Sequence record: KC295538
DNA: 64,000 bases
Strand: one strand, 5' to 3'
Source of the DNA: Escherichia phage PBECO4
Part shown: one piece after another, positions 255 to 29,536 of the stretch
Layout of the letters: each line of letters starts with the position of its first letter
How positions within the stretch are numbered: the stretch's first letter is position 1
Program-made: the position numbers and the translations under genes
The notes under the pieces: generated by a model
The model's database searches: none
Seen by the model: only the letters and a program-made list of their open reading frames with translations
What the model was told of the DNA's origin: nothing

Positions 255-1103
255 TTATAATGTTTCTTTTATGTTATGTAACATAGTATTAACTATGCAC
301 ATCTTACCACCTAACTTGTAGTAATATTCTAACTTATTAATAATATTACTTTTTAATATATCAAATATTTGATATTCATTTGGATCGAAACTAAGTTCGA
401 ATTGGAATGTATATAAATTGTTAAAGAGGTGAACTAATGATGCATCTGGTGATTCCATTGTAACTGTATATTTTTCACGATAACCAGTACTAATCACTAC
501 TTCGGATATATCACCTTTCATGTATATATCAATATTGTACATCATTGGTCTGCCTGTGGCAATATCTTTCATGCGAAAGAATGCAGTGCTACGATATACA
601 ATGCCTTCTGAAACCTGTTCTTGTATAGTGATATTTGAAACTTCACTCTCTTGGAATTTGGACTCGAATGAATGAGTGTAATTTGTTTTTTCATTATCCG
701 TGTGCATAGTACATGTGTATTTTCCAAAATCATCTCTAGATGTATATGATTTATCACTGCTAGTTTTATAGAACGAAACACCATTGATATGTTGTTCTTT
801 ATACATCATCGTGTCATGGGATTTGTAGTATGAACAATTAGGTGTTGCAAGAGATTCAAACTTGTTCACATCATGACAGTAAGAAATAGAAGAATCGCTA
901 TACATTACTACATCACGAATTGCAACTTCTTTTGTAATACCTTTTTTGACGGAAATTTGAAAGTCATTGTATGGGAAGATTGTATATCCATCGTATGCAT
1001 CTGATGTACTGATACCAAATGGTGTAGTAGAATTCAGAAATTCGTTGATATGTTCAAGTACTGAATACTTTTTAAAATTAAGAAAATCTGAAATGTCTAA
1101 CAT
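255..1103 (-). CDS. hypothetical protein
   Basis: Track ORF 255..1109 starts at TTG; first ATG at 1101-1103 (MLDISDF...). Confidence 0.6.
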   Translation of the reverse strand: MLDISDFLNFKKYSVLEHINEFLNSTTPFGISTSDAYDGYTIFPYNDFQISVKKGITKEVAIRDVVMYSDSSISYCHDVNKFESLATPNCSYYKSHDTMMYKEQHINGVSFYKTSSDKSYTSRDDFGKYTCTMHTDNEKTNYTHSFESKFQESEVSNITIQEQVSEGIVYRSTAFFRMKDIATGRPMMYNIDIYMKGDISEVVISTGYREKYTVTMESPDASLVHLFNNLYTFQFELSFDPNEYQIFDILKSNIINKLEYYYKLGGKMCIVNTMLHNIKETL

Positions 1104-1132
1104 ATACAATCCTCATAAATTTAGACAAAAAA

Positions 1133-1264
1133 TTAGTCGAGAATAAATCTCGACTTGTGTTTTACTTTACCATTTTTCATTTCTTTTTTACGATCCACAT
1201 GTGTCTGAGGTTTATTAAACTCATTCATGTGTTTCTGTACGAAATTGTTAACTTTCTTCGACAT
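1133..1264 (-). CDS. small lysine-rich hypothetical protein (43 aa)
   Basis: ATG..TAA ORF MSKKVNNFVQKHMNEF...; ends in terminator hairpin; below track size cutoff. Confidence 0.3.
   Translation of the reverse strand: MSKKVNNFVQKHMNEFNKPQTHVDRKKEMKNGKVKHKSRFILD
1135..1155 (-). terminator. intrinsic terminator hairpin
   Basis: agtcgagaataaatctcgact inverted repeat followed on minus strand by T-run. Confidence 0.5.
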
Positions 1265-1266
1265 AA

Positions 1267-1740
1267 TTACTCCAAACTAGGATCTTTAACTGTTAGACTT
1301 TCTATGTCACTCGCATAAAGAACTACATTGGATTGATTTTCAGATACTTTAAAGTCGTGATAACTGTCTTTTACGATAAAATTATCTAATATAAACCCTT
1401 TACTACAGCACATCATAATTTTATCATCTTTGATTGTGTAGGTGTTTTTCTTTTTACGTACTTCAGATTGTGGCGTAATACTATCGTTATTACGAATAAC
1501 ACAATCAATATATTGTTCATTTGTACTCATAGGCATACCCATGATAAACGAGTTTTCAGTACTGATTGTTAGTATAAAAACGTTAGTATTTGGGTTGTGA
1601 AAAAAATCATGCATTGTCTTGCTACACAAAAATAGACATTGAATAATGTCCTTCACATTAAACATTATATCATGAACTTTGAATGCGTCCAACTCTAAAA
1701 TGTCATCAATTTTCCCATTTTCAACAGTTTTAATCTCCAT
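1267..1740 (-). CDS. hypothetical protein
   Basis: 157 aa ORF, tightly abutting neighbours. Confidence 0.6.
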   Translation of the reverse strand: MEIKTVENGKIDDILELDAFKVHDIMFNVKDIIQCLFLCSKTMHDFFHNPNTNVFILTISTENSFIMGMPMSTNEQYIDCVIRNNDSITPQSEVRKKKNTYTIKDDKIMMCCSKGFILDNFIVKDSYHDFKVSENQSNVVLYASDIESLTVKDPSLE

Positions 1741-1782
1741 GATCTATCCTTGATCTTCTAATGCACTCCATGTGCGTTTTTA

Positions 1783-2280
1783 TTAAGTCACTGCATTATA
1801 CTTCTCTATAGCATTAGTAATATTTAATATAGCTTCAGGAACCATTTCTTTATTGTATTCACGTTTTAAATTTTCCATTTTCTTAATAATTTCCAAGAAA
1901 AATGGCAAAATACATGAAGTATCTGTAAAATTACATGAGTACAAAGTACTCATTTGAAATAATTCACCTGAATCAATATTAAGAGTATTGTATTCCTTAA
2001 CAATGTTTTCGTTTGAATTGAAAATGTGAAATACTGTTCCCATGTGATGAAGATATACACCATTCTCATTTTGAATATTGCATGGTGTGATTACAATAGC
2101 AGTGTTGTCAATATTATTTACTATTGATAAACGCAGACTATGTAAACCAAAAATAACAGTGCAATCACTTGAACTGCTTTGAATTTGGTCAGCAGTTTGT
2201 GTAACACTTGTAATATTTTCTCCATCAAGACAACTCTTGATTTTATCAAATGAATTTTTCATTGATTTAGTTAGATACAT
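1783..2280 (-). CDS. FamA paralog (FQxS C-terminal module)
   Basis: 165 aa; motif GELFQMSTLY. Confidence 0.7.
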   Translation of the reverse strand: MYLTKSMKNSFDKIKSCLDGENITSVTQTADQIQSSSSDCTVIFGLHSLRLSIVNNIDNTAIVITPCNIQNENGVYLHHMGTVFHIFNSNENIVKEYNTLNIDSGELFQMSTLYSCNFTDTSCILPFFLEIIKKMENLKREYNKEMVPEAILNITNAIEKYNAVT

Positions 2281-2684
2281 TTATGAACACCTTCGAAATA
2301 TTTGATTAATGATTTTATCATATCGCTACTAATGCCATGTAAGTCAACACCTAAACACTCGTATTGAAAAAAATCAATATCCTCCAGCGTGTTTAGATCA
2401 ATTTCCACCTTATCATGACCCAACGAATTCATAATAACACTGCTATCATTAATTGTCAAGAAAGTTTTATTACTTGAACCTAAAAAGATTTTAACATGTT
2501 TATTTGGCATTGCATCATAAGACAACGATTGTGAACCATAAATGTATGTACCTTCCATCGAACCAGTATCTATAAAGTATAGACGAATCCCTTTATGGTA
2601 TTTTGACTCCTTAGTGATCGCCTCTATTAGTTCATCTGTGGTTGTTAACCTTGTTTCTTTCTTCTCTAAATTGCTCAAATGCAT
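2271..2684 (-). CDS. FamA-like paralog (divergent)
   Basis: 137 aa; DIDFFQYECLGV. Confidence 0.55.
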   Translation of the reverse strand: MHLSNLEKKETRLTTTDELIEAITKESKYHKGIRLYFIDTGSMEGTYIYGSQSLSYDAMPNKHVKIFLGSSNKTFLTINDSSVIMNSLGHDKVEIDLNTLEDIDFFQYECLGVDLHGISSDMIKSLIKYFEGVHKCI

Positions 2685-3105
2685 AAAATAATACCTTGAT
2701 CATTTGTAATGTTTCTGACATTACATCAGCAGAAAATTGAACATCAGTGTATTTTACCATAGTACTTTGAGTAAAGAAAGTAGCTTCAATATCTTCAAGG
2801 TCAAATGGCTCATCAAATAAATTAGTACTGAACATATCAGTTTTTTTCTTATAAGTCAACATAAACTTAGCACTGTATCTCAGTACTATTTCATCTTTAC
2901 TTACTAAAATTCGTGCAATGTTCTGTCTTCCAAGCGTCGTAATGTTAACATTAAATGTATTTTTACGTGTCTCGATAATATCAACAAAATATCCATCACC
3001 CTGATAAACATTGTGGTGAACTTCTAAACCTTGTTGTACTGTATTAAACAATGCATCTTGAATAAAATAATTTGCAGTGTCGATGTTTCCTAAAATATCT
3101 AACAT
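2632..3105 (-). CDS. FamA-like paralog (divergent)
   Basis: 157 aa; EATFFTQSTMV. Confidence 0.55.
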   Translation of the reverse strand: MLDILGNIDTANYFIQDALFNTVQQGLEVHHNVYQGDGYFVDIIETRKNTFNVNITTLGRQNIARILVSKDEIVLRYSAKFMLTYKKKTDMFSTNLFDEPFDLEDIEATFFTQSTMVKYTDVQFSADVMSETLQMIKVLFYAFEQFREERNKVNNHR

Positions 3106-3617
3106 AACTTCTCCTTTATAGCTGTCATATTTAGAAGAAATTCAGTAAGCAATTCCTCCGTAACATGCTCTGTATACCAGAATATCACAATATCTTTTGA
3201 AAGTCGTGTATTCATAAAAATATCTACTAACTCTTTGTAGTACTCTAAATCATTAAGATCTTTTAAAATCAATGAGTACTGAAAGAGTAATTCTTCAGTT
3301 AGATTAAATTCTGGGTAGAGTAAATCATTAAATTCATGTGACGCTGTTTGAACTTTAATTTCTTTGAAATCATTTGTTATTCCTCCACATGTTCCATATA
3401 AAGCTGCATAGTCCATGAATCTGGCTTTGGGGTTCAAGTCAAGAACCGTTTCCCCTTTATAGGATAAACGATGGAACGCAGAGAACTTGGTTAATTCCCA
3501 CGGTTGCTTAATGCCTAATTCAAGTATATCAACCCCACTGTACAAAATATCAGTGAATATCTCACCAATCCTCAATAATAATTTAGTACGTGCTAGTACT
3601 GTCATAGGTTCAATCAT
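3099..3617 (-). CDS. FamA paralog
   Basis: 172 aa; EELLFQYSLIL. Confidence 0.7.
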   Translation of the reverse strand: MIEPMTVLARTKLLLRIGEIFTDILYSGVDILELGIKQPWELTKFSAFHRLSYKGETVLDLNPKARFMDYAALYGTCGGITNDFKEIKVQTASHEFNDLLYPEFNLTEELLFQYSLILKDLNDLEYYKELVDIFMNTRLSKDIVIFWYTEHVTEELLTEFLLNMTAIKEKLC

Positions 3618-4030
3618 TATACACCTTCATATTCATCAAGGAAATCTTCGATGATCATTTCAGCTTCATCCATATGCATCGCATCAACTTCAATAATACG
3701 AATTTTAGATGTATCCCAAATCATAAAGCTAGGAACATTGTCTGGCTCGTAATCATTTTTGTACTGAACAGCATCATAACCTTGAGCCGTGCAATTCTCA
3801 ATAAGTGAACGCCACTCATCATCACTGCCTAAATCTTCACACAGAAGCACGTTATCAACATCAACTTCTAAGGTATGCAAGTATACTGTACATGCGTCAA
3901 CAACGTTTAGTGGGCTTCTCAGCTTGCGTAATGCAGCTTCCAAAGCACTGTGTTTGCCTCCCATATGAAGTCCACCATACGGGATATAAAAGTTATCAAT
4001 TTTTACAGTACTCGCATGATACAGTTTCAT
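3617..4030 (-). CDS. hypothetical protein
   Basis: 137 aa ORF; no family motif. Confidence 0.6.
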   Translation of the reverse strand: MKLYHASTVKIDNFYIPYGGLHMGGKHSALEAALRKLRSPLNVVDACTVYLHTLEVDVDNVLLCEDLGSDDEWRSLIENCTAQGYDAVQYKNDYEPDNVPSFMIWDTSKIRIIEVDAMHMDEAEMIIEDFLDEYEGV

Positions 4031-4039
4031 ATTTCATTC

Positions 4040-4624
4040 CTATTTCAGTACTTTAGTCAATGCTTTCACAGCGGTTTCGAGTTGAGCATAGTCGTTAATT
4101 GTAAGGTAATGAATACCATGTGCATTCATTTCAGCATCTATTTTACTATATAAATCAAACATGTCAAGGATATGATTGTATGCATATGAAGTATTTGAAA
4201 CACACAATTCTTGGAACAAACGTTCTTCCAAGTCATTCACAACTTCACCATGAATGTCAAGTACTACACCATCTTTGTAAGTATAGTATTCTTCACTCCA
4301 CTCTTCAGAAAGTCGGAACAGTAACGGATTCCCGCCGAACACTTCCATGTCATAGGAATTTATCTCACTAAGTAGTGTTTCACCTGGTTCTGGTGTGAAG
4401 TCGAAATATGCGAGTGTTGAACCATCATAGTCCTTGAGTGATATACCAGTATGATTTAAGCTTACTTCACCATAATTATTATTCTTGAACTTGATTTTGA
4501 TATTAATCTCAATGTATTTTATTGTCTCATCATCACTGAAATTGTAATCAATTTTATACTTTTCCCAAAGAAGTTTGATATCTTTGAAGTACTTTAATTT
4601 ACTTTCAATTTCTTTAAAGTCCAT
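4040..4624 (-). CDS. FamA paralog
   Basis: 194 aa; EERLFQELCV. Confidence 0.65.
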   Translation of the reverse strand: MDFKEIESKLKYFKDIKLLWEKYKIDYNFSDDETIKYIEINIKIKFKNNNYGEVSLNHTGISLKDYDGSTLAYFDFTPEPGETLLSEINSYDMEVFGGNPLLFRLSEEWSEEYYTYKDGVVLDIHGEVVNDLEERLFQELCVSNTSYAYNHILDMFDLYSKIDAEMNAHGIHYLTINDYAQLETAVKALTKVLK

Positions 4625-5216
4625 CTGGAACCACCATTTCTTGAATGTGCTTACATTTTATATTTGCCATATTAGTATGCAATATAAGGGTGTGATTACG
4701 CAATGATTTTACTTTATAGCACTCATTGAGTACTGAAATAATTCCCCATAACTCTTCTACACTAATAGTGATAGGTTCACTTGTACTCAGTTGCATTAGT
4801 GCTGCTTCAACATCATCTTTGTTATTAATAGTGAACTGAATTCCTCTTTTGAGAATTTTAGTTTTTGGATTGTATTCAGCTAATACATCACCTTCTGGAT
4901 AACCCTCATGAAGTAATAATGTTGTTTCAAAATCACCGCAGTTGAAGTTAATTTCATCATAATCAGGTACACAAATGTTTCCTTCCCCGTACTCATTAGG
5001 TTCAGATTCTAGTGTTAAAATACGCTGAGTCTCATTGCTCAGGATGATAGAATCATTCCAGTACTGGGTAGTGAATGCTCTACGTTTCTTTTGAAAGCAC
5101 ATACTCGACATTGACCCATACTTCTTGTATATGGACTTCTTGAACTCAATAGCAGCAGGAGCCACCTTGATAACTTCACGAATTAAGTCAATAGCTTCTT
5201 GATAACTTTTTCTCAT
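4614..5216 (-). CDS. FamA-like paralog (divergent)
   Basis: 200 aa; EAALMQLSTSE. Confidence 0.55.
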   Translation of the reverse strand: MRKSYQEAIDLIREVIKVAPAAIEFKKSIYKKYGSMSSMCFQKKRRAFTTQYWNDSIILSNETQRILTLESEPNEYGEGNICVPDYDEINFNCGDFETTLLLHEGYPEGDVLAEYNPKTKILKRGIQFTINNKDDVEAALMQLSTSEPITISVEELWGIISVLNECYKVKSLRNHTLILHTNMANIKCKHIQEMVVPDGL

Positions 5217-5764
5217 TTATCGTATCCATATAAAATATGATCTAGTGTACTTTGGACTTCTTCATGAAAGAATGAAGGGTAAACTAGTATTAATTTATCT
5301 TTAAGTTCAAGGGAATGGCATAGTTCTAATGTTTTGTAACAATCCTCGTACTGTGCCAGAACATGCAATGTACTTAACTGAAAATGTTGTTCTTCAGAGT
5401 ACAATAAATCATAAACCATATTATCGGATAAAAGATTAGATTTGATTGAAGGATCAAGTACTGTCTGATGGTGACCAACCCAAAAGATAGCTTTGGAGTT
5501 AATGTTATTACAACCCCATCCTTTCCCCATCTTTTGGTGAATAGCAAATACACAGGAATCATACAAATTAATGTTCAGACGTTCTTCGTCTGCATGGATA
5601 GTTACACCATCAATAGATAGTGTATATTTGAAATCCATAGCCCCCTCACTTCGTGCACGGGAACTAAAGACGATATATCGATGAATTATGGTATTGATTT
5701 TATCTGCCCATCCTTCAACACATTTGGATGCACATAATGTAAAAAGATCATGATTGTAGTTCAT
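5213..5764 (-). CDS. FamA paralog
   Basis: 183 aa; EEQHFQLSTLH. Confidence 0.7.
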   Translation of the reverse strand: MNYNHDLFTLCASKCVEGWADKINTIIHRYIVFSSRARSEGAMDFKYTLSIDGVTIHADEERLNINLYDSCVFAIHQKMGKGWGCNNINSKAIFWVGHHQTVLDPSIKSNLLSDNMVYDLLYSEEQHFQLSTLHVLAQYEDCYKTLELCHSLELKDKLILVYPSFFHEEVQSTLDHILYGYDK

Positions 5765-5825
5765 AAAATTCTCCTTGAGAACAATGTATCATACAAAAAA
5801 ACCAGAGTCAACCCCTGGTACAAAT

Positions 5826-6407
5826 TTAATCCATCATAAGTGGGATGATTGCCCATATCTTTTTCATAATCATATCTTCAGTAAAAACAAATGTTTTAGG
5901 AGCAGTATATGATATTGACACACCAAATGGAAGTTTGATTGCATCATCAATTATATTATGAATATCAAACCATGTTTTAACATAATCATATGGTGGAAGT
6001 TCATGAATTGTACTTAACTGAAAGTAATGTTCTTCACCAAAATCATTATATTCAATTTCACAAATTTTAGTGAATTGTTGATTCCATTTAGATATAATAC
6101 TATTTTTATTATTGTACATAGTAGTTCTATGCATAAAACCATTTTTGCTAGTATGATTTGATATTACGTTTTCTTCAATGTCAGTATCTATTTTAAAATT
6201 CATATCAAAGTTGTAGTACGGACTCGAAGATTCTTTGAATTTTAAATGTAAATTACGATTGTTATTAATTTCAATTTCAATACAAAACACATCTGAATCA
6301 AAACGATTAAACTTGTAATCGTTATCTTCCGGTAGATTCTGTATTTTTTTCATAATACTAAGCATAGGGTGTACTACACTTTTAATAAAATCATTTGTTA
6401 TTTTCAT
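5826..6407 (-). CDS. FamA paralog
   Basis: 193 aa; EEHYFQLSTIH. Confidence 0.7.
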   Translation of the reverse strand: MKITNDFIKSVVHPMLSIMKKIQNLPEDNDYKFNRFDSDVFCIEIEINNNRNLHLKFKESSSPYYNFDMNFKIDTDIEENVISNHTSKNGFMHRTTMYNNKNSIISKWNQQFTKICEIEYNDFGEEHYFQLSTIHELPPYDYVKTWFDIHNIIDDAIKLPFGVSISYTAPKTFVFTEDMIMKKIWAIIPLMMD

Positions 6408-6900
6408 AGTATTCCTTTAGAACTTTATATGATTCAACAATACTATCTTGTGTATAATTTGAACTATATACAACAGCACTTGTTTTAGTTGACCATAGAT
6501 ATGACATAAAGGTTATAACACTACTACATGGACTTAATGTATTGTTTTGGAATTCAATTTCTTCAATGTTATCAGTACTGGTATTGATGAATTGTAAAGT
6601 ATCCATTGATTTATTGTACAGCGATACTATAGTAGAATCCGTACCAGGACTATACATGAATGTCTCATTGCTAATAGTACTATCATTAGTATATGATGGT
6701 TTAGGAATATAAATCAAACGCATGATATCACGCTCCAGACCTGACTTATTACTTTCCACCAAAGAAATCATATCTATATTTGTTATATGTTCAACACTGA
6801 CATGGAACTTTTTGTTTAGAATTACATCTTTTGGAGAATTTTTATATGAAGATAAGATCTCATACATCTCAACTAATTCTCGTGCATTTAATAAACTCAT
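6391..6900 (-). CDS. hypothetical protein
   Basis: 169 aa ORF in array; motif not clear. Confidence 0.55.
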   Translation of the reverse strand: MSLLNARELVEMYEILSSYKNSPKDVILNKKFHVSVEHITNIDMISLVESNKSGLERDIMRLIYIPKPSYTNDSTISNETFMYSPGTDSTIVSLYNKSMDTLQFINTSTDNIEEIEFQNNTLSPCSSVITFMSYLWSTKTSAVVYSSNYTQDSIVESYKVLKEYYENNK

Positions 6901-7325
6901 GTTTTGTCTCTTAATGAAAGAATATCCTTAGTATAAACTGAAACAGAAATATGATTATATTTCATCATTAATTTATACACATAAGAAGCTAGTACTAAAT
7001 CGTAAATTAATTTAGTATTATATAGTACTTGGTATTGTAACGCAAGTGAATCAATATCATCTTTACTTTCAATATCCAGAAATGTACCAAAAATTGTAGT
7101 ACCGTGGAGATGAAAAGTGGAATTAATGCAATCAATGCATTCATTGTCCAACAGAGTAGATGATGATGCCCTCGGTGAATCCCAAATAGTCACTGCGTGT
7201 ATGCCCTCAACGAACAAATCTATCCATATTTTGTGTCGTTGTCTTTTTTTTGTTTTATAATTTTCTGGATTTGAAAGTGTAGTTTCAATTATATCCCATA
7301 TGTACAAACAATCATCTCTTGTCAT
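6897..7325 (-). CDS. hypothetical protein
   Basis: 142 aa ORF; stop/start overlap with neighbours. Confidence 0.55.
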   Translation of the reverse strand: MTRDDCLYIWDIIETTLSNPENYKTKKRQRHKIWIDLFVEGIHAVTIWDSPRASSSTLLDNECIDCINSTFHLHGTTIFGTFLDIESKDDIDSLALQYQVLYNTKLIYDLVLASYVYKLMMKYNHISVSVYTKDILSLRDKT

Positions 7326-7903
7326 TATAGCACCTTATCCATTGCTGCATTTAATGCTTTTAAACGATCTACATTCAAATTATTGAAGATGTATGTTCCT
7401 AACATGTGGAAATCGAACTGGTACTTTTTGTATTCATGATAAATTAAACTACAAAAAATAACAGTACTAAGAACCTCTTCATGTATAACAGTGCTCATCT
7501 GGAACAGTTCTTCTTCAACTGTACTTGATTCTGGATTGATAGCTTTTAACACATACTCTTCATCACCGAATAGTACTTTAATATTATATAAAACACTAAT
7601 AGTACTAATATGGAATGGGTGGTGTGAAAAACTTCCATCATCCTTAATTTGTATATCGGTTCTAATCTCACACTCTTCATTACTTTTATTTTTATTTTTT
7701 ACAATACAAATATTTCTAGCCCCAGAAATAGTAAGAATACCGTGATCGTAATATTCATTGGACCAACATTTAGATGAAATTGCTACATCACGGATGAGGT
7801 ATTGTTTTTCAATTTCTTTTGCACTACTAACAATTGATAACATTTTTGTACTGATATCATATAATAACTGATGGCGTTCTGTCATATAACTATAAGCGTT
7901 CAT
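7325..7903 (-). CDS. FamA paralog
   Basis: 192 aa; EEELFQMSTVIH. Confidence 0.7.
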   Translation of the reverse strand: MNAYSYMTERHQLLYDISTKMLSIVSSAKEIEKQYLIRDVAISSKCWSNEYYDHGILTISGARNICIVKNKNKSNEECEIRTDIQIKDDGSFSHHPFHISTISVLYNIKVLFGDEEYVLKAINPESSTVEEELFQMSTVIHEEVLSTVIFCSLIYHEYKKYQFDFHMLGTYIFNNLNVDRLKALNAAMDKVL

Positions 7904-9037: not shown

Positions 9038-9108
9038 ATCTTCTCCTATCCTCTATTAAAAGCGATTATAACACATCTGAATGCTACTGTAAAGACATAA
9101 ACACAAAA

Positions 9109-12911: not shown

Positions 12912-12970
12912 TGTGATATAACCCTTTACAATTAATATAAAGAGATTATATCACAAAGAATCGGAGGGTG

Positions 12971-20728: not shown

Positions 20729-20778
20729 CTTAATCTCTACTATAATTAATAAGGTAAACTCCAATATAAGGAGCACGT

Positions 20779-20909
20779 TGCGGGGCGGGGTATTTTTTTG
20801 TTTCAGGAAACATGCCCTGTACTCTGAAAAACACAATATAAAACTTTATATTAAACATATACCTTAACATGTTTTTCAGCGGAAATTTTTTTGACCCCCC
20901 CCTGCGGCC
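20779..20909. other. GC-rich structured intergenic element (G-tract ... C-tract)
   Basis: gcggggcgggg + T-run at 20780-20800 and gacccccccctgcggcc at 20893-20909 can pair across ~100 nt; unusual in AT-rich context. Confidence 0.4.
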
Positions 20910-21509: not shown

Positions 21510-22061
21510 TCATACATTAACAACTTTATCGATGTAATCTTCTAACATATCAATATATCTGGTATTGGTTCTAACTAAAAGGTATGCAAATCCAGAAAAC
21601 TCCTGTGTATAATGCTTTACAGCGTACATACAACGAAGCTTATCATTGTCATACATTGTACTGTACTGAAACAAACTCTCGTCTGATAGCTCTAATAACG
21701 CTTGGGCTTCACTTCTCGTGAACTTCATAGGGTCATGTACTGCATCACAAAAACAAACCTGTGTCTCGCTATTGAAACCCTGTGATAGATATATACCTTC
21801 ACACTCTGAACGCACCGATACTGCATTATAACTATGTGTTGCCCCCATCATATCTGAACTCAAAACTAAAATCAACCCATTTTTATTTTTAATCAACAAA
21901 TCTGACTTAAGGGATTTGATCTCCGTATGGGAAATATCACCAAATCTTCCTGGGACTTCAAACTTATCAACGTTGTATACAATCTTTTGTACTTGCTCTT
22001 TTAAACGCTTAATTGCACTTCTGTCTTTTTCTAATGTATCTAATAAACTCATTGAACTCAT
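21510..22061 (-). CDS. FamA paralog
   Basis: Start moved to ATG at 22061 (MSSMSLL...); DESLFQYSTMYD. Confidence 0.65.
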   Translation of the reverse strand: MSSMSLLDTLEKDRSAIKRLKEQVQKIVYNVDKFEVPGRFGDISHTEIKSLKSDLLIKNKNGLILVLSSDMMGATHSYNAVSVRSECEGIYLSQGFNSETQVCFCDAVHDPMKFTRSEAQALLELSDESLFQYSTMYDNDKLRCMYAVKHYTQEFSGFAYLLVRTNTRYIDMLEDYIDKVVNV

Positions 22062-22071
22062 TGTACTTTCC

Positions 22072-22416
22072 TTACATATTTGTACCGAACAAAACGGAAC
22101 TTTGAATGCCATTAATCGACACTTCATGTACATATATATTTTGTCTGAACAAAGGAACTAATTGAACTAAACTCGTTTGCATAATAATATGCATATGTAC
22201 ATTGTCATATGCCGTTTCGTATTGGAATCGTGCAGCTTCATCTTCTATGAAATTCGGAACTTGGACTGGATTCTCAAAATTTGTCCTTGTACTGAACTGT
22301 ACATCATTGTCCTGTACCTTAATACCATATGAATTATCATTGTTATCAACTACATCAAATTCAATTAAACTACCATCTTTACTGACGTTTACTATATAAA
22401 CCGAAAATCGACTCAT
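22072..22416 (-). CDS. FamA-like paralog (divergent)
   Basis: 114 aa; EAARFQYETAYD. Confidence 0.5.
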   Translation of the reverse strand: MSRFSVYIVNVSKDGSLIEFDVVDNNDNSYGIKVQDNDVQFSTRTNFENPVQVPNFIEDEAARFQYETAYDNVHMHIIMQTSLVQLVPLFRQNIYVHEVSINGIQSSVLFGTNM

Positions 22417-22928
22417 AAACCTATTTCCTCTAAATCTTTGACAAATGTATCATAATCCGATAATGACAAAAATATGTCTGTACTGATGTTCTGACGTAAT
22501 GTATTAAACAAATTATGTACCTGTAATAAATCAGGTGAATAAATCAGGGATTGCTGGAAATACGATTCTTCTGTATCTAATATATCCCTGCACTCAATTT
22601 CACGAACTCGTTGGTATATTGAATTTAATAATACATTTTCATCTTTGAGCATTGGAAGGTATCGGATGTACATGTTCTCCATCAACTCATCTTGGATTGA
22701 ACCCCTGAACTGCAACACGTATTCAAAACACATCACTACATCTTGTAGGTAATTGGCACTGTACTGATTACTATACACGATTTTATGACAACTGAACTCG
22801 GAATCATTTCTGAACCAATTGTTACCCTCTTTCCTGTACTTATGACTAAGCTTCCCATCCTCCAACGCTCGAATGAACTTCATAATGTTAATTGCAAAAT
22901 CATATGAATGATGCTTGTGTTGATGCAT
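22413..22928 (-). CDS. FamA paralog
   Basis: 171 aa; EESYFQQSLIY. Confidence 0.7.
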   Translation of the reverse strand: MHQHKHHSYDFAINIMKFIRALEDGKLSHKYRKEGNNWFRNDSEFSCHKIVYSNQYSANYLQDVVMCFEYVLQFRGSIQDELMENMYIRYLPMLKDENVLLNSIYQRVREIECRDILDTEESYFQQSLIYSPDLLQVHNLFNTLRQNISTDIFLSLSDYDTFVKDLEEIGL

Positions 22929-23132: not shown

Positions 23133-23756
23133 CTATATATCCAACCCTTTTACAACATCTACGAAATGTTCAAACACTTCTTTTGAAAAATAACCACCTT
23201 CACAAAAAAGCATACTAAACGGTGGCAGCATGTCCGATAACTCTTTAGCTAAATTGATTTCTGCTCTTAACTCTTGAACATCAATGATATCATGTACTAA
23301 AGATAATTGAAACATGAATGCATCTACATCTTCATTCATTTCTGAATTGTAATATAACTCTTCAGGGAATTTGTCGGTTTCGTAATAATAAAAAACTTTA
23401 TTGTTGAACACACCACTAATAGGAACATCATTTTCATCTTTCTTTGAAATGTTTGTTTCCCATGACTCTATATTATTAGGAACAAAAAAATCATAGGCTG
23501 ATTTTGAACCCTGTACTGAATCCAACTTTATTCCATAATATTCCGTATCCATGTATTTCTGCTGTAATGTAATACCACGTGTACTGACATTCACTTGGAA
23601 TATATCATCTTTATCTGGAACGCTAAATGGAATACATAACACTGAATTCTCAGGGTATTTGGCAATGAATGCATCCAGCACTTTATTAAGCACTGGAATG
23701 GCAATTTTACTGTACTGCATCAAATCATACATTTTAATTCTGGTCATATCATTCAC
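23133..23756 (-). CDS. FamA paralog
   Basis: 207 aa; DAFMFQLSLVHD. Confidence 0.7.
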   Translation of the reverse strand: MNDMTRIKMYDLMQYSKIAIPVLNKVLDAFIAKYPENSVLCIPFSVPDKDDIFQVNVSTRGITLQQKYMDTEYYGIKLDSVQGSKSAYDFFVPNNIESWETNISKKDENDVPISGVFNNKVFYYYETDKFPEELYYNSEMNEDVDAFMFQLSLVHDIIDVQELRAEINLAKELSDMLPPFSMLFCEGGYFSKEVFEHFVDVVKGLDI

Positions 23757-24279
23757 CTGTGTATGTTTTCACCCTTAGCGATTCAAAATCCCATACATCA
23801 CTGATTGTACCATTGTGCCTGTAATCATAATATTCTACTAATACATTATACAATAACTTCAACGATACAAATTCATGATTCCACGGAGCTTTATTCTCAT
23901 GAACACATTTGGTGATATAAGGTATAATATATAAACTAAACAACACTAATGGTGAATGTATACATTGCATTTGAAAATATTCTTCTTCTTGCATACAATG
24001 TTCAGGAATAATTAGATCATAATGTGTCTCAAATAAATGTAAACCTATTGTGGTTTTTTTCGTATCACATGCGTACCATATTGTACTATCCGAAATAAAT
24101 GGAATGATACCATTATTGTTTGCAATGTACATCATATGGTAAGAGCGATTTGTCTTGTTAAATATCTCGATACTTTCGATATTACTACAAATCATGTATT
24201 CAAGGCAATCAATGATCTTATCTTTAAATGTACCAATTTCATTGAATGACATTGCTTTCTGTACTGTTGTACTGCTCAT
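23749..24279 (-). CDS. FamA paralog
   Basis: 176 aa; EEEYFQMQCIH. Confidence 0.65.
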   Translation of the reverse strand: MSSTTVQKAMSFNEIGTFKDKIIDCLEYMICSNIESIEIFNKTNRSYHMMYIANNNGIIPFISDSTIWYACDTKKTTIGLHLFETHYDLIIPEHCMQEEEYFQMQCIHSPLVLFSLYIIPYITKCVHENKAPWNHEFVSLKLLYNVLVEYYDYRHNGTISDVWDFESLRVKTYTGE

Positions 24280-24818
24280 ATGTTCTCCTTAAAAAAATCC
24301 AAATACTCTTCATTGAAAGCATATGTATCATCTTTTATGTTATGCACCACATAATCATAAAGAGCTATGAATGCAGGGATTATGATCTTACATGATGTAT
24401 TATTATATTTGTGCTGCTCCAAATCAACGGTATTCAATTTAGCAATAAGCATAGCAACAAAGATATCTTCATGGCGGTGTACTGTACTGTACTGAAAATA
24501 TTCATCCTCTCCAATATCAGGATGATATAACGGTATATCCAAATTATTACGAATTGACATTTTATATTTTTGTAATGCAGCTAAATGCATGAACCACAAT
24601 CTATCTTCATGGAAAGATGGAAAAATAATTTTGTCTGTGCTAATAAAAATTTCTTCATTTCGATTATTTGTCACAAGAGGTGCATACATTTTAATTTTTG
24701 CAGATCTAATAATTAAATTAAAAATATAATGAATCTTATGAACTGCACTTGATGCATCTTCGTATGTACTTGGGATTATGAAACTCACTATATGTTCTCC
24801 TTTAAAATGATTACACAT
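24276..24818 (-). CDS. FamA paralog
   Basis: 180 aa; EDEYFQYSTVH. Confidence 0.7.
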   Translation of the reverse strand: MCNHFKGEHIVSFIIPSTYEDASSAVHKIHYIFNLIIRSAKIKMYAPLVTNNRNEEIFISTDKIIFPSFHEDRLWFMHLAALQKYKMSIRNNLDIPLYHPDIGEDEYFQYSTVHRHEDIFVAMLIAKLNTVDLEQHKYNNTSCKIIIPAFIALYDYVVHNIKDDTYAFNEEYLDFFKENI

Positions 24819-24870
24819 GATAACAGCTTTGGTCTTCTATGTCAATACCAAAACGAAAAAAGCCCATATC

Positions 24871-25377
24871 TTACGATACAGGCGTTCTGGGCATGTTTAT
24901 TTGAATTTCATTGTACAAATCATCAATATATAGACATGAAAACGATACACTTTCTTTAACTATATTGTTGTGATAAAGCATTTTAAATGCAATATAGAAA
25001 AATAAATCAATATCATCATGTACTAAATTCTGCTGGAACCACCACTCTTCTGTTAAATCTTGTGCATTAAAATCATCAGGAACTACAATTGACGACATAT
25101 CAGAATCTTCTTTGTACTCAAACCACATGTCGTCATTCGGATAACGTTCATGCTTCTCTGGGTAACAATTGGTGGGATTAAATGCTAAAATATAAAATGC
25201 CGTCGAAGAATGTTCTTTATTAAAAAATGAATTATTCCACACCTGATACCTTTCACCAACATCAAGCTCTTTTGATACTGATGTTATTGCACATAATGTA
25301 CTGTATATTGTTTCTATTTTGTGAACAAATTTAAATGCTGCATCTAAACTGAACTCTAAATCAGACATGCGGTGCAT
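24871..25377 (-). CDS. FamA paralog
   Basis: 168 aa; EEWWFQQNLVHD. Confidence 0.7.
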   Translation of the reverse strand: MHRMSDLEFSLDAAFKFVHKIETIYSTLCAITSVSKELDVGERYQVWNNSFFNKEHSSTAFYILAFNPTNCYPEKHERYPNDDMWFEYKEDSDMSSIVVPDDFNAQDLTEEWWFQQNLVHDDIDLFFYIAFKMLYHNNIVKESVSFSCLYIDDLYNEIQINMPRTPVS

Positions 25378-25697
25378 AAAATTACCTCAACTAAAACAAG
25401 AACGGTATTGAATTCGATGCAACCTTTGATTCCTTGATTGTACATGTACTTTGCTACTACATATTTCTGTACTAAATTATAATTTTTAAATTCCTCAAAA
25501 TTGTAATTTAGAACAAAATCTGTACTCAAAAATAACTTATGCATCTCTAATGCACTTTGATAATACGCGTACAACTCACGGATATCAATACTGGTTAAAT
25601 TATATTGTTCATATCTATGATACGGGATGGCTTCAATTTCAATACTATAAAACCATTCTCTTAACTTATTAATATCAAATGTATTATTCAGCTTCAT
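25356..25697 (-). CDS. hypothetical protein
   Basis: 113 aa ORF. Confidence 0.5.
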   Translation of the reverse strand: MKLNNTFDINKLREWFYSIEIEAIPYHRYEQYNLTSIDIRELYAYYQSALEMHKLFLSTDFVLNYNFEEFKNYNLVQKYVVAKYMYNQGIKGCIEFNTVLVLVEVILCTACLI

Positions 25698-26250
25698 AAC
25701 TCAATACCTCCATTAAACACTCATACACACCATCAATCGCATAAGCACAAAAATTGAAATTAATTTTGTGATTCTTGTGTAATGGACTATTGTGTACTGT
25801 ACTCATTATGACATTATAAAATAACAAACGCACTGGTACAAGCATTGAACCTTGGAAAAATTCTTCCTCTGATTTATATGTATTGTACTCTATTGCTTTG
25901 TTCGTTTCTGTATCATATTTTACCATTACTAACGGGGCATTTTTATTATACCATGCGTACTCTAAATCATTCTTTCCAATAACAGCACCAGGTGCAAAAT
26001 CCAAAAGACCAATAACACTACGGGCATTTGGTGTATCAGGTGTATTGAATCGTTTATCAAAATGACTCGTGCACGTAATATATGTATTGTACTTCGATGG
26101 AATAATACCAATACATTTGTGGAAATGACGCTTGTGATATTTCTGGGCATTATATAAGGCTGCAACAATACAAGCTAACTTTTGTCCCATAAGGATGGCA
26201 TTAGCGTAGGTGTACTGAATATCATTGCTGGTACGGTACTTCGAGGTCAT
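25684..26250 (-). CDS. FamA paralog
   Basis: 188 aa; EEEFFQGSMLV. Confidence 0.7.
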   Translation of the reverse strand: MTSKYRTSNDIQYTYANAILMGQKLACIVAALYNAQKYHKRHFHKCIGIIPSKYNTYITCTSHFDKRFNTPDTPNARSVIGLLDFAPGAVIGKNDLEYAWYNKNAPLVMVKYDTETNKAIEYNTYKSEEEFFQGSMLVPVRLLFYNVIMSTVHNSPLHKNHKINFNFCAYAIDGVYECLMEVLSYEAE

Positions 26251-26533
26251 AATATTTCCTTTGCCATATCATGGGCTTAAAATCAATAACAGCTTTCTGT
26301 ATCTTTTTTAATAATAAGACATCATAACCACCCGTGTCAATCACTAATTGCTGTTGGAACAATTCTTCATCGGATAATGTATTGAAATCTACAAAATAAT
26401 CTGTAACTATCGAATCATTTAAATGTGCCATGTACCAACCTGAACTTCTTGAATAAATCAAATTCCACCCATCGTCATCATCTTCTAATTCAACATAAAT
26501 CATATCTGGGGTATACATCATTTTATACTTCAT
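26222..26533 (-). CDS. FamA paralog
   Basis: 103 aa; DEELFQQQLVID. Confidence 0.65.
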   Translation of the reverse strand: MKYKMMYTPDMIYVELEDDDDGWNLIYSRSSGWYMAHLNDSIVTDYFVDFNTLSDEELFQQQLVIDTGGYDVLLLKKIQKAVIDFKPMIWQRKYYDLEVPYQQ

Positions 26534-27077
26534 AACTATATCCTTGCATTAATAAATCATAAACTACATGGACTAAATTTAATTGAATATAAAATTTTAA
26601 ACCTTTAATTAATGAATTCAAATGCATTGTACTGAATAACATTAGATACATCATCTCATGCGGTTTTGTGATTAATGATTTTTGAAATACTTCAGCTTCA
26701 TCATAAGGGTCTATGAACTGAAATTTGTCTTCATCATAATTTGTATTGGAATGCTGATATATAAAATAATCATCATTGGTATTGTACCACAAATATCCTT
26801 CGAATCCTGTACTAACATCTTTGGTCAATGGGGATGCTGATACTGGATTTGAACTGATTAATGCACCTACATCAACAATCCCCGTTGTATCATATTCGAT
26901 TTCAACATCAATGTCAATATCAATGTATTTCCTTGCGATATCTGCGTTTATGGACAAATATAAACTACCACCTGTCCTCTGACTCAGGATTCCATCTATC
27001 TGCGATATAGGATGGTTGTTATTGAGGATAAGCATTATTGTACTTATCTTGTGTGCTAATAACTCTATCTCATTCAT
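26523..27077 (-). CDS. FamA paralog
   Basis: 184 aa; EAEVFQKSLIT. Confidence 0.7.
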   Translation of the reverse strand: MNEIELLAHKISTIMLILNNNHPISQIDGILSQRTGGSLYLSINADIARKYIDIDIDVEIEYDTTGIVDVGALISSNPVSASPLTKDVSTGFEGYLWYNTNDDYFIYQHSNTNYDEDKFQFIDPYDEAEVFQKSLITKPHEMMYLMLFSTMHLNSLIKGLKFYIQLNLVHVVYDLLMQGYSYEV

Positions 27078-27425: not shown

Positions 27426-27812
27426 CTAATCTTTCCATTTAATAGGATACTCCTTTCCTTGTACTATATATGACAAAATCCATCCGTAATGAATAGGATG
27501 ATTTTTATCTGAATCAGGAATAAAATATAAAGCTGTACTTGGATTATGACTGAATAAATCTTTATTGTCAAATGTAAAATGTGATAATATAATTTTCCTT
27601 GTACTTGGACGAATAACATTCTTAACACTGAACTCTGTTCCTTTGTATTTCTCCGAGAATTCAAATAATGCATCTGTAATTAAATCACTGAACTCTTGGA
27701 TTACAAAATTCTGATAAAATGCATTAATCTCTTTTAACTCTGTATACAATTCACTTCTGGTATTCAAAAGGAATATTACTTGTTTAAGATCCTGTACTAT
27801 TGTTGGGTTCAT
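27426..27812 (-). CDS. hypothetical protein
   Basis: 128 aa ORF. Confidence 0.55.
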   Translation of the reverse strand: MNPTIVQDLKQVIFLLNTRSELYTELKEINAFYQNFVIQEFSDLITDALFEFSEKYKGTEFSVKNVIRPSTRKIILSHFTFDNKDLFSHNPSTALYFIPDSDKNHPIHYGWILSYIVQGKEYPIKWKD

Positions 27813-28071
27813 ATTTGTTTATCTCATTATGTACCTTAAGCATAAAAATTTGCATATGAATTTTTTGTTCAAGGTGCTTGATAAATTTCTGTACTGTATC
27901 TTCTTGATCTTTTGTACCAAGATAAAATAACATATTAAATTCAGATAATCTCAGAGAGAAATCTTCCTCTCCCCCTCGTAAACAAAAATCCCTGTACTTT
28001 GAAGCGTACAATAAAGAATCTACCTTTTTATATATTTGGGTCTGCATTGTATCTCCATTTTCAAGGACCAT
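27784..28071 (-). CDS. FamB paralog
   Basis: 95 aa; LFYLGTKDQEDTV. Confidence 0.6.
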   Translation of the reverse strand: MVLENGDTMQTQIYKKVDSLLYASKYRDFCLRGGEEDFSLRLSEFNMLFYLGTKDQEDTVQKFIKHLEQKIHMQIFMLKVHNEINKYEPNNSTGS

Positions 28072-28232
28072 ATGAGCTTATCAACGCATTGATCCTGTGC
28101 TATTGTCCCTAGATAAAATAATACATCAAAATCTGATATTTTGATATTAAAAGGATCGGTGTGTACATTTTTAATAAACTCCCTGTACTTCATTTCATAT
28201 GCATTAGGTATATTCTTATATGTCAATTTCAA
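28020..28232 (-). CDS. FamB paralog
   Basis: 70 aa; LFYLGTIAQDQCV. Confidence 0.6.
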   Translation of the reverse strand: MKLTYKNIPNAYEMKYREFIKNVHTDPFNIKISDFDVLFYLGTIAQDQCVDKLIWSLKMEIQCRPKYIKR

Positions 28233-28533
28233 TGATCCTCCCTGACATACCTTGTATTAGCTTATCATACATATCGAGCATCACTTTTTGAATACTAATT
28301 AGTACTGGCATCGTGCAAATATCAATGTCGTATACTAAGCTGTACTGGAATAATTCATCTTCCTGCATTTGTACTAAATTAGGTAAAAGATAATTGTCTG
28401 CCTCTTCATCCTGGTACTTGAAATGCATAACACCATCCTTTTTGTACAAAAGAATGTCAATATCACCCAACTCTTCGGCATAACCAAATATACATATATT
28501 AGATGTTTTTGCTATATTAAATTTCATCTCCAC
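28216..28533 (-). CDS. FamA paralog (short)
   Basis: 105 aa; EDELFQYSLVYD. Confidence 0.7.
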   Translation of the reverse strand: MEMKFNIAKTSNICIFGYAEELGDIDILLYKKDGVMHFKYQDEEADNYLLPNLVQMQEDELFQYSLVYDIDICTMPVLISIQKVMLDMYDKLIQGMSGRIIEIDI

Positions 28534-28769
28534 CTCTCTCCGTCAGCACAAGAGTACTGGTACGTTGTCGTTAGGGTAGGGACCATGTTCGTAATGGGCA
28601 TGTTGTTAACAATAACCGTAACAGGCATAAGAATCGTCTCTACTCTACTCTGTCCTGTCCTTGTGCAATTCATCTTCTGCATTTCATCTGAATCCATGAA
28701 ATACAATACAAATGGTGCAATCCCAAGAACAATACACAAGACGATAAGGAAATTTAAAAAATTTAACAT
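28524..28769 (-). CDS. small membrane protein (single N-terminal TM helix)
   Basis: 81 aa; hydrophobic FLNFLIVLCIVLGIAPFVLYF. Confidence 0.5.
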   Translation of the reverse strand: MLNFLNFLIVLCIVLGIAPFVLYFMDSDEMQKMNCTRTGQSRVETILMPVTVIVNNMPITNMVPTLTTTYQYSCADGERWR

Positions 28770-28830
28770 AATTTTCTACCCTAATGATTAACGTACAGGT
28801 ACTATATCAGTAATGAAAAGTACTGTCAAG

Positions 28831-29226
28831 CTAGTATTGCACTGTTCTAATGAAAGTACCTTTACTCATGGATTTAAGCTTATGAACCTCTTCCTGTATA
28901 CCCTTGATTAACCCTAAAGGTATAGGTACATCATGTACTAAGCTGTACTGAAAGTATTCTTCTTCAGATAAAGTACTAACATCTGGAACGCCAATTTTAG
29001 TTAGATAATCTTGATGTGTTGACCAATAAATTATATCTTCAGTACTATTGTACTCCCCATATACTGAACAATATTGATGAATATCTTTCCTGTACCCTTG
29101 AGCAATAAAGAACTTATCTACTGCATTACCAGCATTAATAGAATTCACTTCGATTGTCACAGTACTTGAGCTTGTATAACTCTTAATATTATCAGTACTC
29201 AACTGTGTGTTCTTCATAATCACCAT
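28831..29226 (-). CDS. FamA paralog
   Basis: 131 aa; EEEYFQYSLVHD. Confidence 0.7.
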   Translation of the reverse strand: MVIMKNTQLSTDNIKSYTSSSTVTIEVNSINAGNAVDKFFIAQGYRKDIHQYCSVYGEYNSTEDIIYWSTHQDYLTKIGVPDVSTLSEEEYFQYSLVHDVPIPLGLIKGIQEEVHKLKSMSKGTFIRTVQY

Positions 29227-29536
29227 TAGGCTCCTGTTTAGATTCTTTCATTAGTACTATCATCTTATGTACTAATGGCATAGGAAACTCTAAATCCCAT
29301 ACTAATGATTCCTGAAAGTATTCCTCTGGTGATAAAGTACTTAAATCTTTAATATCAACGTGCTTGTATATTTTATTTTCGTAATTAACAAATGATATAT
29401 ATAAATCACTAACATAAGAATCATAGGTAATTGTGAATGGCTTACCCTTGTAATCCATTACATCTCTACATAGACTACTTTTGATATATGTATGTTCAAA
29501 TGATTTATATACCTTGAGTTGTATATTAGTTTTCAT
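29192..29536 (-). CDS. FamA paralog
   Basis: 114 aa; PEEYFQESLVWD. Confidence 0.7.
   Translation of the reverse strand: MKTNIQLKVYKSFEHTYIKSSLCRDVMDYKGKPFTITYDSYVSDLYISFVNYENKIYKHVDIKDLSTLSPEEYFQESLVWDLEFPMPLVHKMIVLMKESKQEPNGDYEEHTVEY

Follow-up and report, generated by a model that had tools for sequence, protein, structure and literature searches.

What can a phage gain from some forty small, related genes set side by side? The question is raised by a 64,000-nucleotide stretch of DNA from Escherichia phage PBECO4 (sequence record KC295538), here called the window, in which a dense minus-strand array encodes a family of small proteins named FamA. The original prediction, made from the letters of the window, had described ~45 consecutive paralogues between positions 255 and 29536, each with a variable N-terminal domain on a conserved C-terminal module, and had suggested a diversifying effector repertoire whose shared module served docking, targeting or packaging. 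As discussed below, FamA is a genuine protein family of ~40 tandem paralogues. Its members may be made early and act inside the cell, each binding a target of its own, as a battery for host takeover or counter-defence, a reading to which we give a probability of roughly 40%.

The window is from an Asteriusvirus jumbo coliphage of the 121Q/phAPEC6 type. Its DNA is 94–99% identical to that of Asteriusvirus jumbo myoviruses (~350 kb), namely Salmonella phage SD-6_S16 and Escherichia phages JP4, E9.1, phAPEC6 and 121Q. G+C content is ~31% within the array, and the array genes are labeled 'hypothetical protein' in all related records examined.

Delimitation of the family and its motif

Membership was defined with an iterated, motif-seeded hidden Markov model (HMM), which recovers 38 minus-strand open reading frames (ORFs) at an expectation value (E) below 1e-3. 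A broader HMM that includes the homologues from phage RaK2 recovers 40 minus-strand ORFs at the same threshold, spanning 1783-29536. The figure of 45 is reached only if ~5 degenerate candidates are counted. The proposed beginning of the array at 255 does not hold either, since ORF 255-1109 is unsupported (hhalign probability 1%) and the first supported member is 1783-2280. Nor are the members consecutive: 69 non-nested minus-strand ORFs fill the array, and ~25 non-family ORFs, including four members of a second family, are interleaved among the FamA genes. The tight packing that had been described is confirmed, as 51 of the 68 junctions overlap and 14 are of the ATGA type.

The family consensus is [ST]-E-E-x-[YL]-F-Q-x-S-[LT]-[VI]-[YHFW]-D, whose F and Q do not vary among the 40 members. 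Among the 38 members, E occupies position -4 in 26 and position -3 in 24, Y or L position -1 in 29, S position +3 in 32, L or T position +4 in 33, and V, I or L position +5 in 37. The core pattern FQx[SNAQ][LTCFMV][VILM] is present in 40 of the 56 array ORFs of at least 100 residues; residue-shuffled copies of the array ORFs contain it 0.26 times on average and three times at most. Elsewhere in the window, it was found neither in the 97 minus-strand ORFs that lie past 29.6 kb nor in the 149 plus-strand ORFs. The motif does lie in the C-terminal region, although its F is 40–75 residues (median 52) from the C-terminus and not 40–50, as first thought. Its codons are split nearly evenly (Phe: 19 TTT and 19 TTC; Gln: 22 CAG and 16 CAA). 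Because synonymous codons vary in this way, the motif is conserved at the protein level and is not a nucleotide repeat read in frame, as had been argued from the start. FQ is also invariant in 65 sequences from two genera and in 132 further database representatives, an invariance that is partly circular because the membership profile itself rewards the motif.

Sequence conservation is concentrated around this C-terminal motif. The high divergence ascribed to the N-terminal parts is borne out, as an HMM built from these parts alone recovers only 5 of 47 sequences in cross-validation.

Database comparisons and predicted fold

In line with the original prediction, no named domain could be assigned to FamA. 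Scans of 38 members against Pfam-A, NCBIfam and PADLOC gave only sub-threshold matches, with no family matched by more than one member, and a profile search of the PDB (hmmsearch, 177,635 sequences) gave no match at E up to 10. In PHROGs, ~31 families match FamA, with E down to 1e-140, and all of them are of 'unknown function'; for instance, phrog_12674, phrog_13866 and phrog_9317 match 21, 16 and 12 of the 38 members, respectively (E down to 1e-65). That database splits the family into ~31 unannotated groups, whereas the unifying motif, fold, copy-number history and context are not recorded there. Foldseek searches against viral models retrieved only uncharacterized proteins of 121Q, RaK2, SP27, Serratia phage BF, Yersinia phage fHe-Yen9-04, GAP32 and an Erwinia jumbo phage. 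The FamA models had no fold match to the DNA-mimic anti-restriction proteins Ocr, ArdA and Arn. Comparison with the SUKH / SMI1-KNR4 immunity proteins revealed neither a SUKH fold nor a Pfam SMI1_KNR4 or SUKH match in FamA.

The family comes in two sizes. The long form has 145–210 residues with an N-terminal helix and often FYLDL at its end, and the short form has 100–137 residues and an IQKEMK-type helix. One member of each class was modeled with AlphaFold: 17314-17766 for the long form (predicted local distance difference test, pLDDT, 84; predicted template modeling score, pTM, 0.80) and 19995-20354 for the short form (pLDDT 83, pTM 0.79). In both models the whole chain is predicted to be one compact domain with a common topology, namely a beta-meander, the short motif helix, a long helix and a terminal strand, to which the long form adds its N-terminal helix. 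These models speak against a variable N-terminal domain carried on a separate conserved module. As N-terminal homology is undetectable by sequence, the single-domain picture rests on the models.

Within them, the motif segment is placed inside a well-packed region (pLDDT 90–98). Its succession of S or T, three acidic positions, a hydrophobic residue and F is that of a standard helix N-cap followed by core residues. Thus, in the models, the motif looks like the structural hinge of one domain, a capped helix, and not like a separable docking module or targeting tag.

FamA proteins are acidic (median isoelectric point, pI, 4.8; mean net charge -9.6), five of them falling to pI 4.05–4.25, whereas the neighboring genes have a pI of 7.9. 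No transmembrane segments were detected in them, the sole transmembrane-like score being that of a doubtful N-terminal extension of 20351-20836 (see below).

Selection, distribution and family history

Are these genes still at work, and are they diversifying? Compared with 121Q and Ecwhy_1, 1:1 syntenic orthologues were found for 37 of the 38 members. The pooled ratio of nonsynonymous to synonymous substitution rates (dN/dS) is 0.26 against 121Q and 0.23 against Ecwhy_1, with a whole-gene range of 0.23–0.30. Along the fold, it is lowest in the motif segment (0.16–0.17) and highest in the beta region (0.32–0.34), and nowhere does it approach 1. These ratios indicate that FamA genes are functional and under purifying selection, without current pervasive diversifying selection, so the word 'diversifying' has to be dropped from the description of the repertoire. 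Given the low dN/dS and the 1:1 syntenic orthologues, the divergence between paralogues must be old and is now conserved.

Neighboring genes differ greatly in their synonymous divergence (dS) from Ecwhy_1, from 0.02 to more than 2. At the extremes, 19144-19635 has a dS of ~0.02 and 99% amino acid identity, and 14801-15361 has a dS above 2 and 54% identity. Such a mosaic suggests recombinational, gene-by-gene replacement of alleles, as in accessory regions.

An exhaustive HMMER scan of 1.84 billion representative proteins retrieved only 137 clusters, all of stand-alone proteins of 65–210 residues; 132 of the representatives were newly found, and all of these carry FQ. In ten clusters that were checked, every member with a named source traced back to one of these phages or to an E. 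coli assembly with ~350-kb contigs. No FamA copy was found in the complete RefSeq E. coli genomes. Judged by these searches, FamA is confined to RaK2-like jumbo phages. A tblastn search with the HMM consensus as query gave no match; a real member is needed as the query. As a side observation, many 'Escherichia coli' isolate assemblies at NCBI, including O157, hold 345–360 kb contigs that encode proteins from the clusters of P0062, P0083, P0094 and P0150, which are relatives of window genes. It appears that Asteriusvirus genomes were assembled together with those of bacterial isolates, because of a carrier state or of contamination.

Copy number varies between genera. Three Asteriusvirus genomes have 40, 41 and 41 members, and only a handful of genes have been gained, lost or swapped between them. 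In RaK2 (Alcyoneusvirus), a syntenic array with at least 27 members lies upstream of genes for a Dam methylase and a cytidylyltransferase, and GAP32 (Mimasvirus) and Serratia phage BF (Eneladusvirus) have ~8 each at the same position. The synteny of the array with these two genes holds in four genera. Searches with the ancestral block also found relatives in Erwinia, Yersinia and Pectobacterium (CBB gp053) phages. In Pseudomonas phage Callisto (PA5oct-like), there is no syntenic array upstream of the cytidylyltransferase-like gene, and the PA5oct transcriptome is therefore not transferable to FamA.

Reciprocal best matches between the window and RaK2 are collinear over 255-12438 of the window. 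Because this orthology is collinear, a block of ~8 ancestral genes must have expanded stepwise, with copies that predate the split of the genera. Identity to RaK2 is 22–42% for FamA members and 40–64% for the interleaved non-family genes; by this measure, the members are evolving faster than their neighbors. Adjacent FamA genes resemble each other slightly more than randomly paired ones do (1 of 2000 permutations), and even the closest paralogues are only 35–58% identical. This signature of tandem duplication is weak: two sub-clusters account for it, and the best paralogue of most genes lies far away.

Expression context and virion proteomes

When might these proteins be made? The coding strand carries 31 sigma-70 promoters close to consensus (at least 11 of 12 positions matched), where Markov simulations predict 2.8; the opposite strand carries seven. 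About 20 of the 31 lie on the minus strand at 35.9–58.9 kb; these are perfect or nearly perfect (TTGACA-16/17-TATAAT), each 28–60 nucleotides upstream of a small ORF, and hardly any small gene there lacks one. From its sequence, the stretch 35900-58950 has the appearance of an immediate-early region in which each gene has a promoter of its own, and FamA would lie in long operons downstream of this presumed region. Four promoters are found in intergenic gaps within the array, and three of them adjoin terminator-like hairpins. The four are kept at orthologous gaps in 121Q and/or Ecwhy_1, and the strand bias recurs in RaK2 and GAP32, whose record annotates such promoters in the equivalent region. 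Since host-type sigma-70 promoters feed the operons, FamA proteins are probably made early by host RNA polymerase. The CBB paper points to a stretch of short hypothetical genes with many RpoD-like promoters as a suspected early host-takeover region, which may differ from the FamA locus.

Are the proteins carried in the particle? The published proteomes of two close relatives of this isolate bear on this point. Of the proteins gp396c to gp466c, which correspond to the array, none was identified among the 62 of the phAPEC6 virion, and the virion list of CBB jumps from CBB_38 to CBB_104, so that CBB_53 is absent. These absences argue against a packaging or internal-protein role, and the packaging module that had been suggested finds no support.

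Functional interpretation

In the mechanism that we favor, FamA is an old multigene family of RaK2-like jumbo myoviruses that encodes small (100–210 residues), acidic, soluble, non-virion proteins. Each would be a single alpha/beta domain with an optional N-terminal helix, a 5–7-stranded beta-meander and the short capped [ST]EEx[YL]FQ helix, after which come a long amphipathic helix and, last, a beta-strand (FYLDL). As the most constrained part of this domain, the motif would be its hinge, not a detachable tag. Long, translationally coupled operons with host-type sigma-70 promoters would lead to early synthesis by the RNA polymerase of the host. The ancestral block of ~8 genes grew by tandem duplication to at least 27 genes in RaK2 and 40–45 in Asteriusvirus, with purifying selection preserving every copy as a separate 1:1 orthologue. 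In each paralogue, the conserved helical core would serve as a scaffold on which the diverged beta-sheet and loops would determine a target of its own. Such targets would be host proteins, either defense systems or housekeeping machinery, and the FamA proteins would act on them as stand-alone intracellular binders or inhibitors. As far as the genes themselves can tell, the genomic setting fits early, non-structural, host-directed proteins.

Several observations weigh against host-directed binding. FamA has no sequence or fold link to a known anti-defense, host-takeover or immunity protein, and positive selection was undetected at the resolution tested. Gene content is near-fixed among phages of one host species, and fast arms races usually give more variation in presence and absence. 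In addition, the view of a scaffold with a variable surface leans on models whose beta region is weaker (pLDDT 49–75 in the long form), and the early timing is read from promoter consensus only. A stronger version of the same idea is correspondingly more doubtful: that in RaK2-like jumbo phages an unrecognized fold has given rise, copy by copy, to a battery of distinct host-directed inhibitors larger than any other known in a cultured coliphage, with at least 40 non-redundant early proteins that would each neutralize a different defense system or host factor.

Could the proteins instead serve the phage itself? As specificity adaptors, regulators or chaperones, they might assist replication, transcription or assembly of the 350-kb genome. 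The 1:1 orthologues, the purifying selection and the near-fixed content would suit such housekeeping-like roles, as would the synteny, in four genera, of the array with the Dam methylase and cytidylyltransferase genes. Nevertheless, copy number varies five-fold (8, 27, 40+) between genera with otherwise similar core machinery, FamA evolves faster than the conserved genes interleaved with it, and no FamA protein was found in the virions of phAPEC6 or CBB. A phage-internal role is an unlikely explanation, though the next in probability after host-directed binding.

Somewhat less probable still is a common docking function, in which the invariant FQ segment would bind one shared partner (a sliding clamp, RNA polymerase, a protease or a chaperone) and the variable part would deliver activities or compete. 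The invariance of F and Q across all the sequences counted above would be explained in this way, and acidic residues precede the motif in ~85% of members. Bacterial clamp-binding motifs (QLSLF, QLxLxL) are loosely resembled by Q-x-S-L-V-[FYW]. The invariance is, as noted, partly circular, and the segment is predicted to be well packed and reads as a capped helix, with an S/T N-cap, acidic residues at N1–N3 and then a hydrophobic one. A single partner would also hardly account for the retention of 40 non-redundant genes. Membership of the beta-clamp-binding motif proteins in particular is not supported, as only 11 of 40 members fit the relaxed pattern Qx[SD][LM]x[FLYW] and the segment falls in a high-confidence packed region of the models, not in an exposed or flexible one.

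The remaining explanations are improbable. Packaged and injected internal proteins, with the module as a capsid-targeting or protease-processing signal like those of T4 internal or phiKZ inner-body proteins, would find a place in phAPEC6, which has an inner body, and the (L/I)xE site of T4 gp21 is resembled by L-[ST]-E just ahead of the motif. Yet only 7 of the 40 members have [LI]xE at -6 to -4, the motif is in the folded core and not at a terminus, and the array proteins are missing from the virion proteomes described above. Functionless or selfish duplicates, kept as genome padding after enlargement of the capsid, would accord with duplication as a route to bigger jumbo-phage genomes (Hua et al. 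2017, PMC5646251), but this possibility is largely refuted by the selection data, as dN/dS is 0.23–0.30 in both protein halves; in addition, reading frames are intact in all genomes compared and collinear orthologues persist across genera at 22–42% identity. The least probable of all is cleavage by a Gln-specific protease at E-E-x-Y-F-Q-[GS], a mimic of the ExxYxQ|S/G site of potyvirus NIa, or tobacco etch virus (TEV)-type, proteases: although EEMYFQGS (11956-12438) and EEGYFQGS (16249-16698) are near-perfect TEV sites and 13 of 40 members fit ExxYxQ, the strict site is present in only two of 40, P1' is unconstrained while Ser at P2' is conserved, both models place the segment in a confidently packed helix, and no 3C/NIa-like protease is known in these phages, for which no exhaustive or whole-genome search was made. 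As short linear motifs, the TEV site, the clamp-binding motif and the gp21 site were each set aside, as each fits a minority of members only.

Members of the array

All member genes are on the minus strand. They are given here from the distal end of the array, with length in residues, motif and E of the family HMM in brackets. The first is 1783-2280 (long form, 165, GELFQMSTLY, 3e-13), a collinear reciprocal best match of RaK2 L003 30418-30915, and the second 3099-3617 (172, EELLFQYSLIL, 7e-11), a reciprocal best match of RaK2 28963-29514. The divergent member 5213-5764 (183, EEQHFQLSTLH) is recovered by the broader HMM only (E 2e-4; hhalign probability 62%). It is followed by 5826-6407 (193, EEHYFQLSTIH, 1e-13), 7325-7903 (192, EEELFQMSTVI, 1e-17), 7890-8474 (194, DAFIFQKSLLD, 1e-13), 9125-9691 (188, DEVLFQLSTIC, 6e-19) and 9636-10199 (187, ESAMFQLSLIH, 3e-22), the last a reciprocal best match of RaK2 22283-22891. 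Next come 10722-11216 (164, EESYFQNSLIY, 4e-23), the short forms 11204-11617 (137, PDELFQYSLVF, 5e-14) and 11601-11963 (120, EEELFQESTIS, 2e-15), and 11956-12438 (160, EEMYFQGSCIH, 6e-24), whose reciprocal best match is RaK2 ORF419 (31% identity over 167 residues).

The middle of the array begins with 12435-12911 (158, EEEFFQYSTVY, 7e-24), which has coliphage orthologues from 99% down to 24% identity, and continues with 12971-13555 (194, QEYYFQLSLLF, 2e-25), the short forms 13515-13850 (111, EGELFQESLVF, 4e-14) and 13840-14202 (120, EDELFQESLVW, 2e-14; with the IQKEMK helix), 14801-15361 (186, EENIFQNSVLH, 5e-15), 16249-16698 (149, EEGYFQGSTVY, 6e-24) and the short form 17003-17317 (104, ESFIFQESLVW, 8e-8). 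The modeled long form 17314-17766 (150, SEEYYFQNSTVY, 2e-28) precedes 17744-18232 (162, SEEYYFQNSTLY, 2e-29), which belongs to a five-gene sub-cluster of closest paralogues, 18232-18675 (147, TEEYYFQQSFIF, 1e-25), 18672-19142 (156, SEEYYFQQNTIY, 3e-22) and 19144-19635 (163, SEEYYFQQSTVY, 2e-30). Three short forms follow: 19645-19998 (117, DGELFQAALVF, 7e-15), the modeled 19995-20354 (119, TAELFQESLVF, 3e-16) and 20351-20836 (8e-15). The real start of the last is probably an ATG near 20728 (MEIKYNEF...) and not the upstream TTG; the TTG-started extension is hydrophobic and is absent from the 121Q annotation, where the orthologue has 369 nucleotides.

Towards the promoter-proximal end are 21510-22133 (207, DESLFQYSTMY, 1e-18), the divergent 22072-22416 (114, EAARFQYETAY; broader HMM only, 9e-6), 22413-22928 (171, EESYFQQSLIY, 4e-20), 23133-23756 (207, DAFMFQLSLVH, 1e-9), 23749-24279 (176, EEEYFQMQCIH, 5e-20) and 24276-24818 (EDEYFQYSTVH, 4e-18). 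The start of 24276-24818 as called probably lies too far upstream, because a promoter overlaps it and the -10 element ends at 24817, one base from the start codon. The array then runs through 24871-25377 (168, EEWWFQQNLVH, 3e-17), 25684-26250 (188, EEEFFQGSMLV, 1e-19), the short form 26222-26533 (103, DEELFQQQLVI, 6e-12), 26523-27077 (184, EAEVFQKSLIT, 6e-20), and the short forms 28216-28533 (105, EDELFQYSLVY, 8e-13), 28831-29226 (131, EEEYFQYSLVH, 5e-19) and 29192-29536 (114, PEEYFQESLVW, 3e-13), which is the transcriptionally first array gene.

Five further minus-strand genes are candidates. A probable degenerate member is 4040-4624 (LEERLFQELCVSN; hhalign probability 45%, E 2e-4 over 52 columns of the C-terminal module). 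Possible degenerate members are 6391-6900 (EEIEFQNNTL), the best non-member with HMM E 0.035 (hhalign 12%) and a collinear reciprocal best match in the RaK2 array; 15716-16252 (FDEQCFQLSC), where the motif is at the expected C-terminal distance and profile support is weak; and, weakly, 2271-2684 (EDIDFFQYECL; HMM E 0.09, hhalign probability 6%). A possible member that lacks the FQ motif is 10196-10738 (MERIKFSLSDNEY), the reciprocal best match of a RaK2 member with EEEMFQLSLVV (L003 23423-24007).

Regulatory elements and neighboring genes

The four sigma-70-like promoters of the array and its terminator-like hairpins are also on the minus strand. In the direction of transcription, the promoter at 28801-28829 (TTGACA-17-TATAGT, 11 of 12 matches) is in an intergenic gap and is kept at the orthologous gap in 121Q and Ecwhy_1. 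The one at 24817-24845 (TTGACA-17-TATCAT) is conserved in 121Q and has a hairpin with a T run just upstream, at 24862-24883. A perfect consensus promoter (TTGACA-18-TATAAT, 12 of 12) lies at 12945-12974, 34 nucleotides upstream of 12435-12911, and is identical in the gaps of 121Q and Ecwhy_1. The fourth, at 9065-9093 (TTTACA-17-TATAAT), is conserved in Ecwhy_1; a hairpin is found at 9107-9126. Other hairpins lie in an intergenic gap at 5801-5819 and at the distal array end (1135-1155).

A second tandem family of 32 small proteins (63–96 residues; consensus ...LLAFLGTNYQERYVEEYINALKNKI) adjoins FamA. Its members have no match in Pfam; 28 are contiguous at 29526-35883 (minus strand), directly upstream of FamA, and four are embedded in the array (15351-15542, 15520-15738, 27784-28071 and 28020-28232). 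It numbers 26 in the 121Q locus, 31 in Ecwhy_1 and 10 in RaK2, with none in GAP32 or BF.

Some non-family genes of the distal array (3617-4030, 1267-1740 and 2632-3105, all on the minus strand) are far better conserved than FamA. Gene 3617-4030 (MKLYHASTVKIDNFYIPYGGLHMGG...) is 58% identical to its RaK2 and 47% to its GAP32 counterpart, and 1267-1740 is 64% and 54% identical, respectively. The three have no match in Pfam or the PDB and match PHROGs only of unknown function.

In the promoter-dense region, a 213-residue ORF at 40219-40860 (minus strand) has a weak, sub-threshold Pkinase match (E 0.002; 17.9 bits, cut-off 31.7). An early Ser/Thr kinase resembling T7 gp0.7 is one possibility, and a chance match the other. 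The coding strand switches near 59 kb, with plus-strand genes at 59276-63061 and a change in the sign of the GC skew. In related phages, RCC1-like 'regulator of chromosome condensation / DNA condensation' paralogues are annotated in the stretch that matches 40000-64000 of the window, and several of these are phAPEC6 virion proteins.

Significance and comparison with known systems

About 19 kb of the 350-kb genome (~5%) is spent on FamA, and 32 more genes on the second family. If the paralogues have their own targets, the array would explain part of the many 'hypothetical' genes of jumbo phages and would offer dozens of candidate host-takeover or anti-defense proteins in a tractable E. coli system, as phAPEC6, 121Q and Sharanji are in culture. 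If the proteins were indeed a battery of inhibitors, they would be a ready-made library of new anti-defense proteins and probes for unknown components of E. coli immunity. If their role is phage-internal, the family definition would still be useful, with modest wider interest. The growth in copy number from 8 to 27 to 40+ with retained orthologues is a clean natural case of viral gene-family growth, and the conserved FQ helix is a simple handle for finding members and designing mutants.

Related expansions have been noted before. The proposal of Hua et al. 2017 that tandem duplication is a path to larger jumbo-phage genomes devotes one sentence to an array of >30 genes in 121Q; tandem arrays in phage G are noted there as well. 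A Zn-ribbon expansion of ~35 copies was reported in phage G (Iyer et al. 2021, PMC7824862), and ~10% of the gene products of RaK2 are paralogous (PMC3622015). These are, like FamA, lineage-specific tandem expansions of small proteins in jumbo phage. FamA is not described in the Sharanji, RaK2, phAPEC6 or Iyer et al. 2021 papers, and no description of its FQ motif, fold, stepwise expansion or cross-genus orthology was found in the searchable literature. FamA is a viral multigene family whose fold is apparently new.

How does such a family compare with those whose working is better understood? Bacterial polyimmunity loci resemble FamA in being tandem arrays of small, diverged alpha+beta proteins, each of which presumably neutralizes a different toxin. 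Loci of this kind, with tandem SUKH or Imm paralogues, were reportedly described by Zhang, Iyer and Aravind in 2011.

Among phages, the T4 internal-protein locus and hyperplastic early regions contain clustered small genes that undergo mosaic allele replacement and counter host defense (e.g., IPI*). The T4 internal proteins share an N-terminal capsid-targeting sequence and are packaged, whereas the conserved part of FamA is C-terminal and inside the fold, and its proteins are not in virions.

The closest working analogy is with the multigene families of eukaryotic large DNA viruses. In African swine fever virus (MGF110, MGF360 and MGF505) and in poxviruses (the Bcl-2-like and ankyrin families), one small fold is present in tandem copies in an early-expressed terminal or accessory region. 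The sequences have diverged almost beyond recognition while the structural core is kept, and the paralogues that have been characterized bind different host factors. FamA has a different fold and a bacterial host, and the comparison is thus one of possible working, not of membership.

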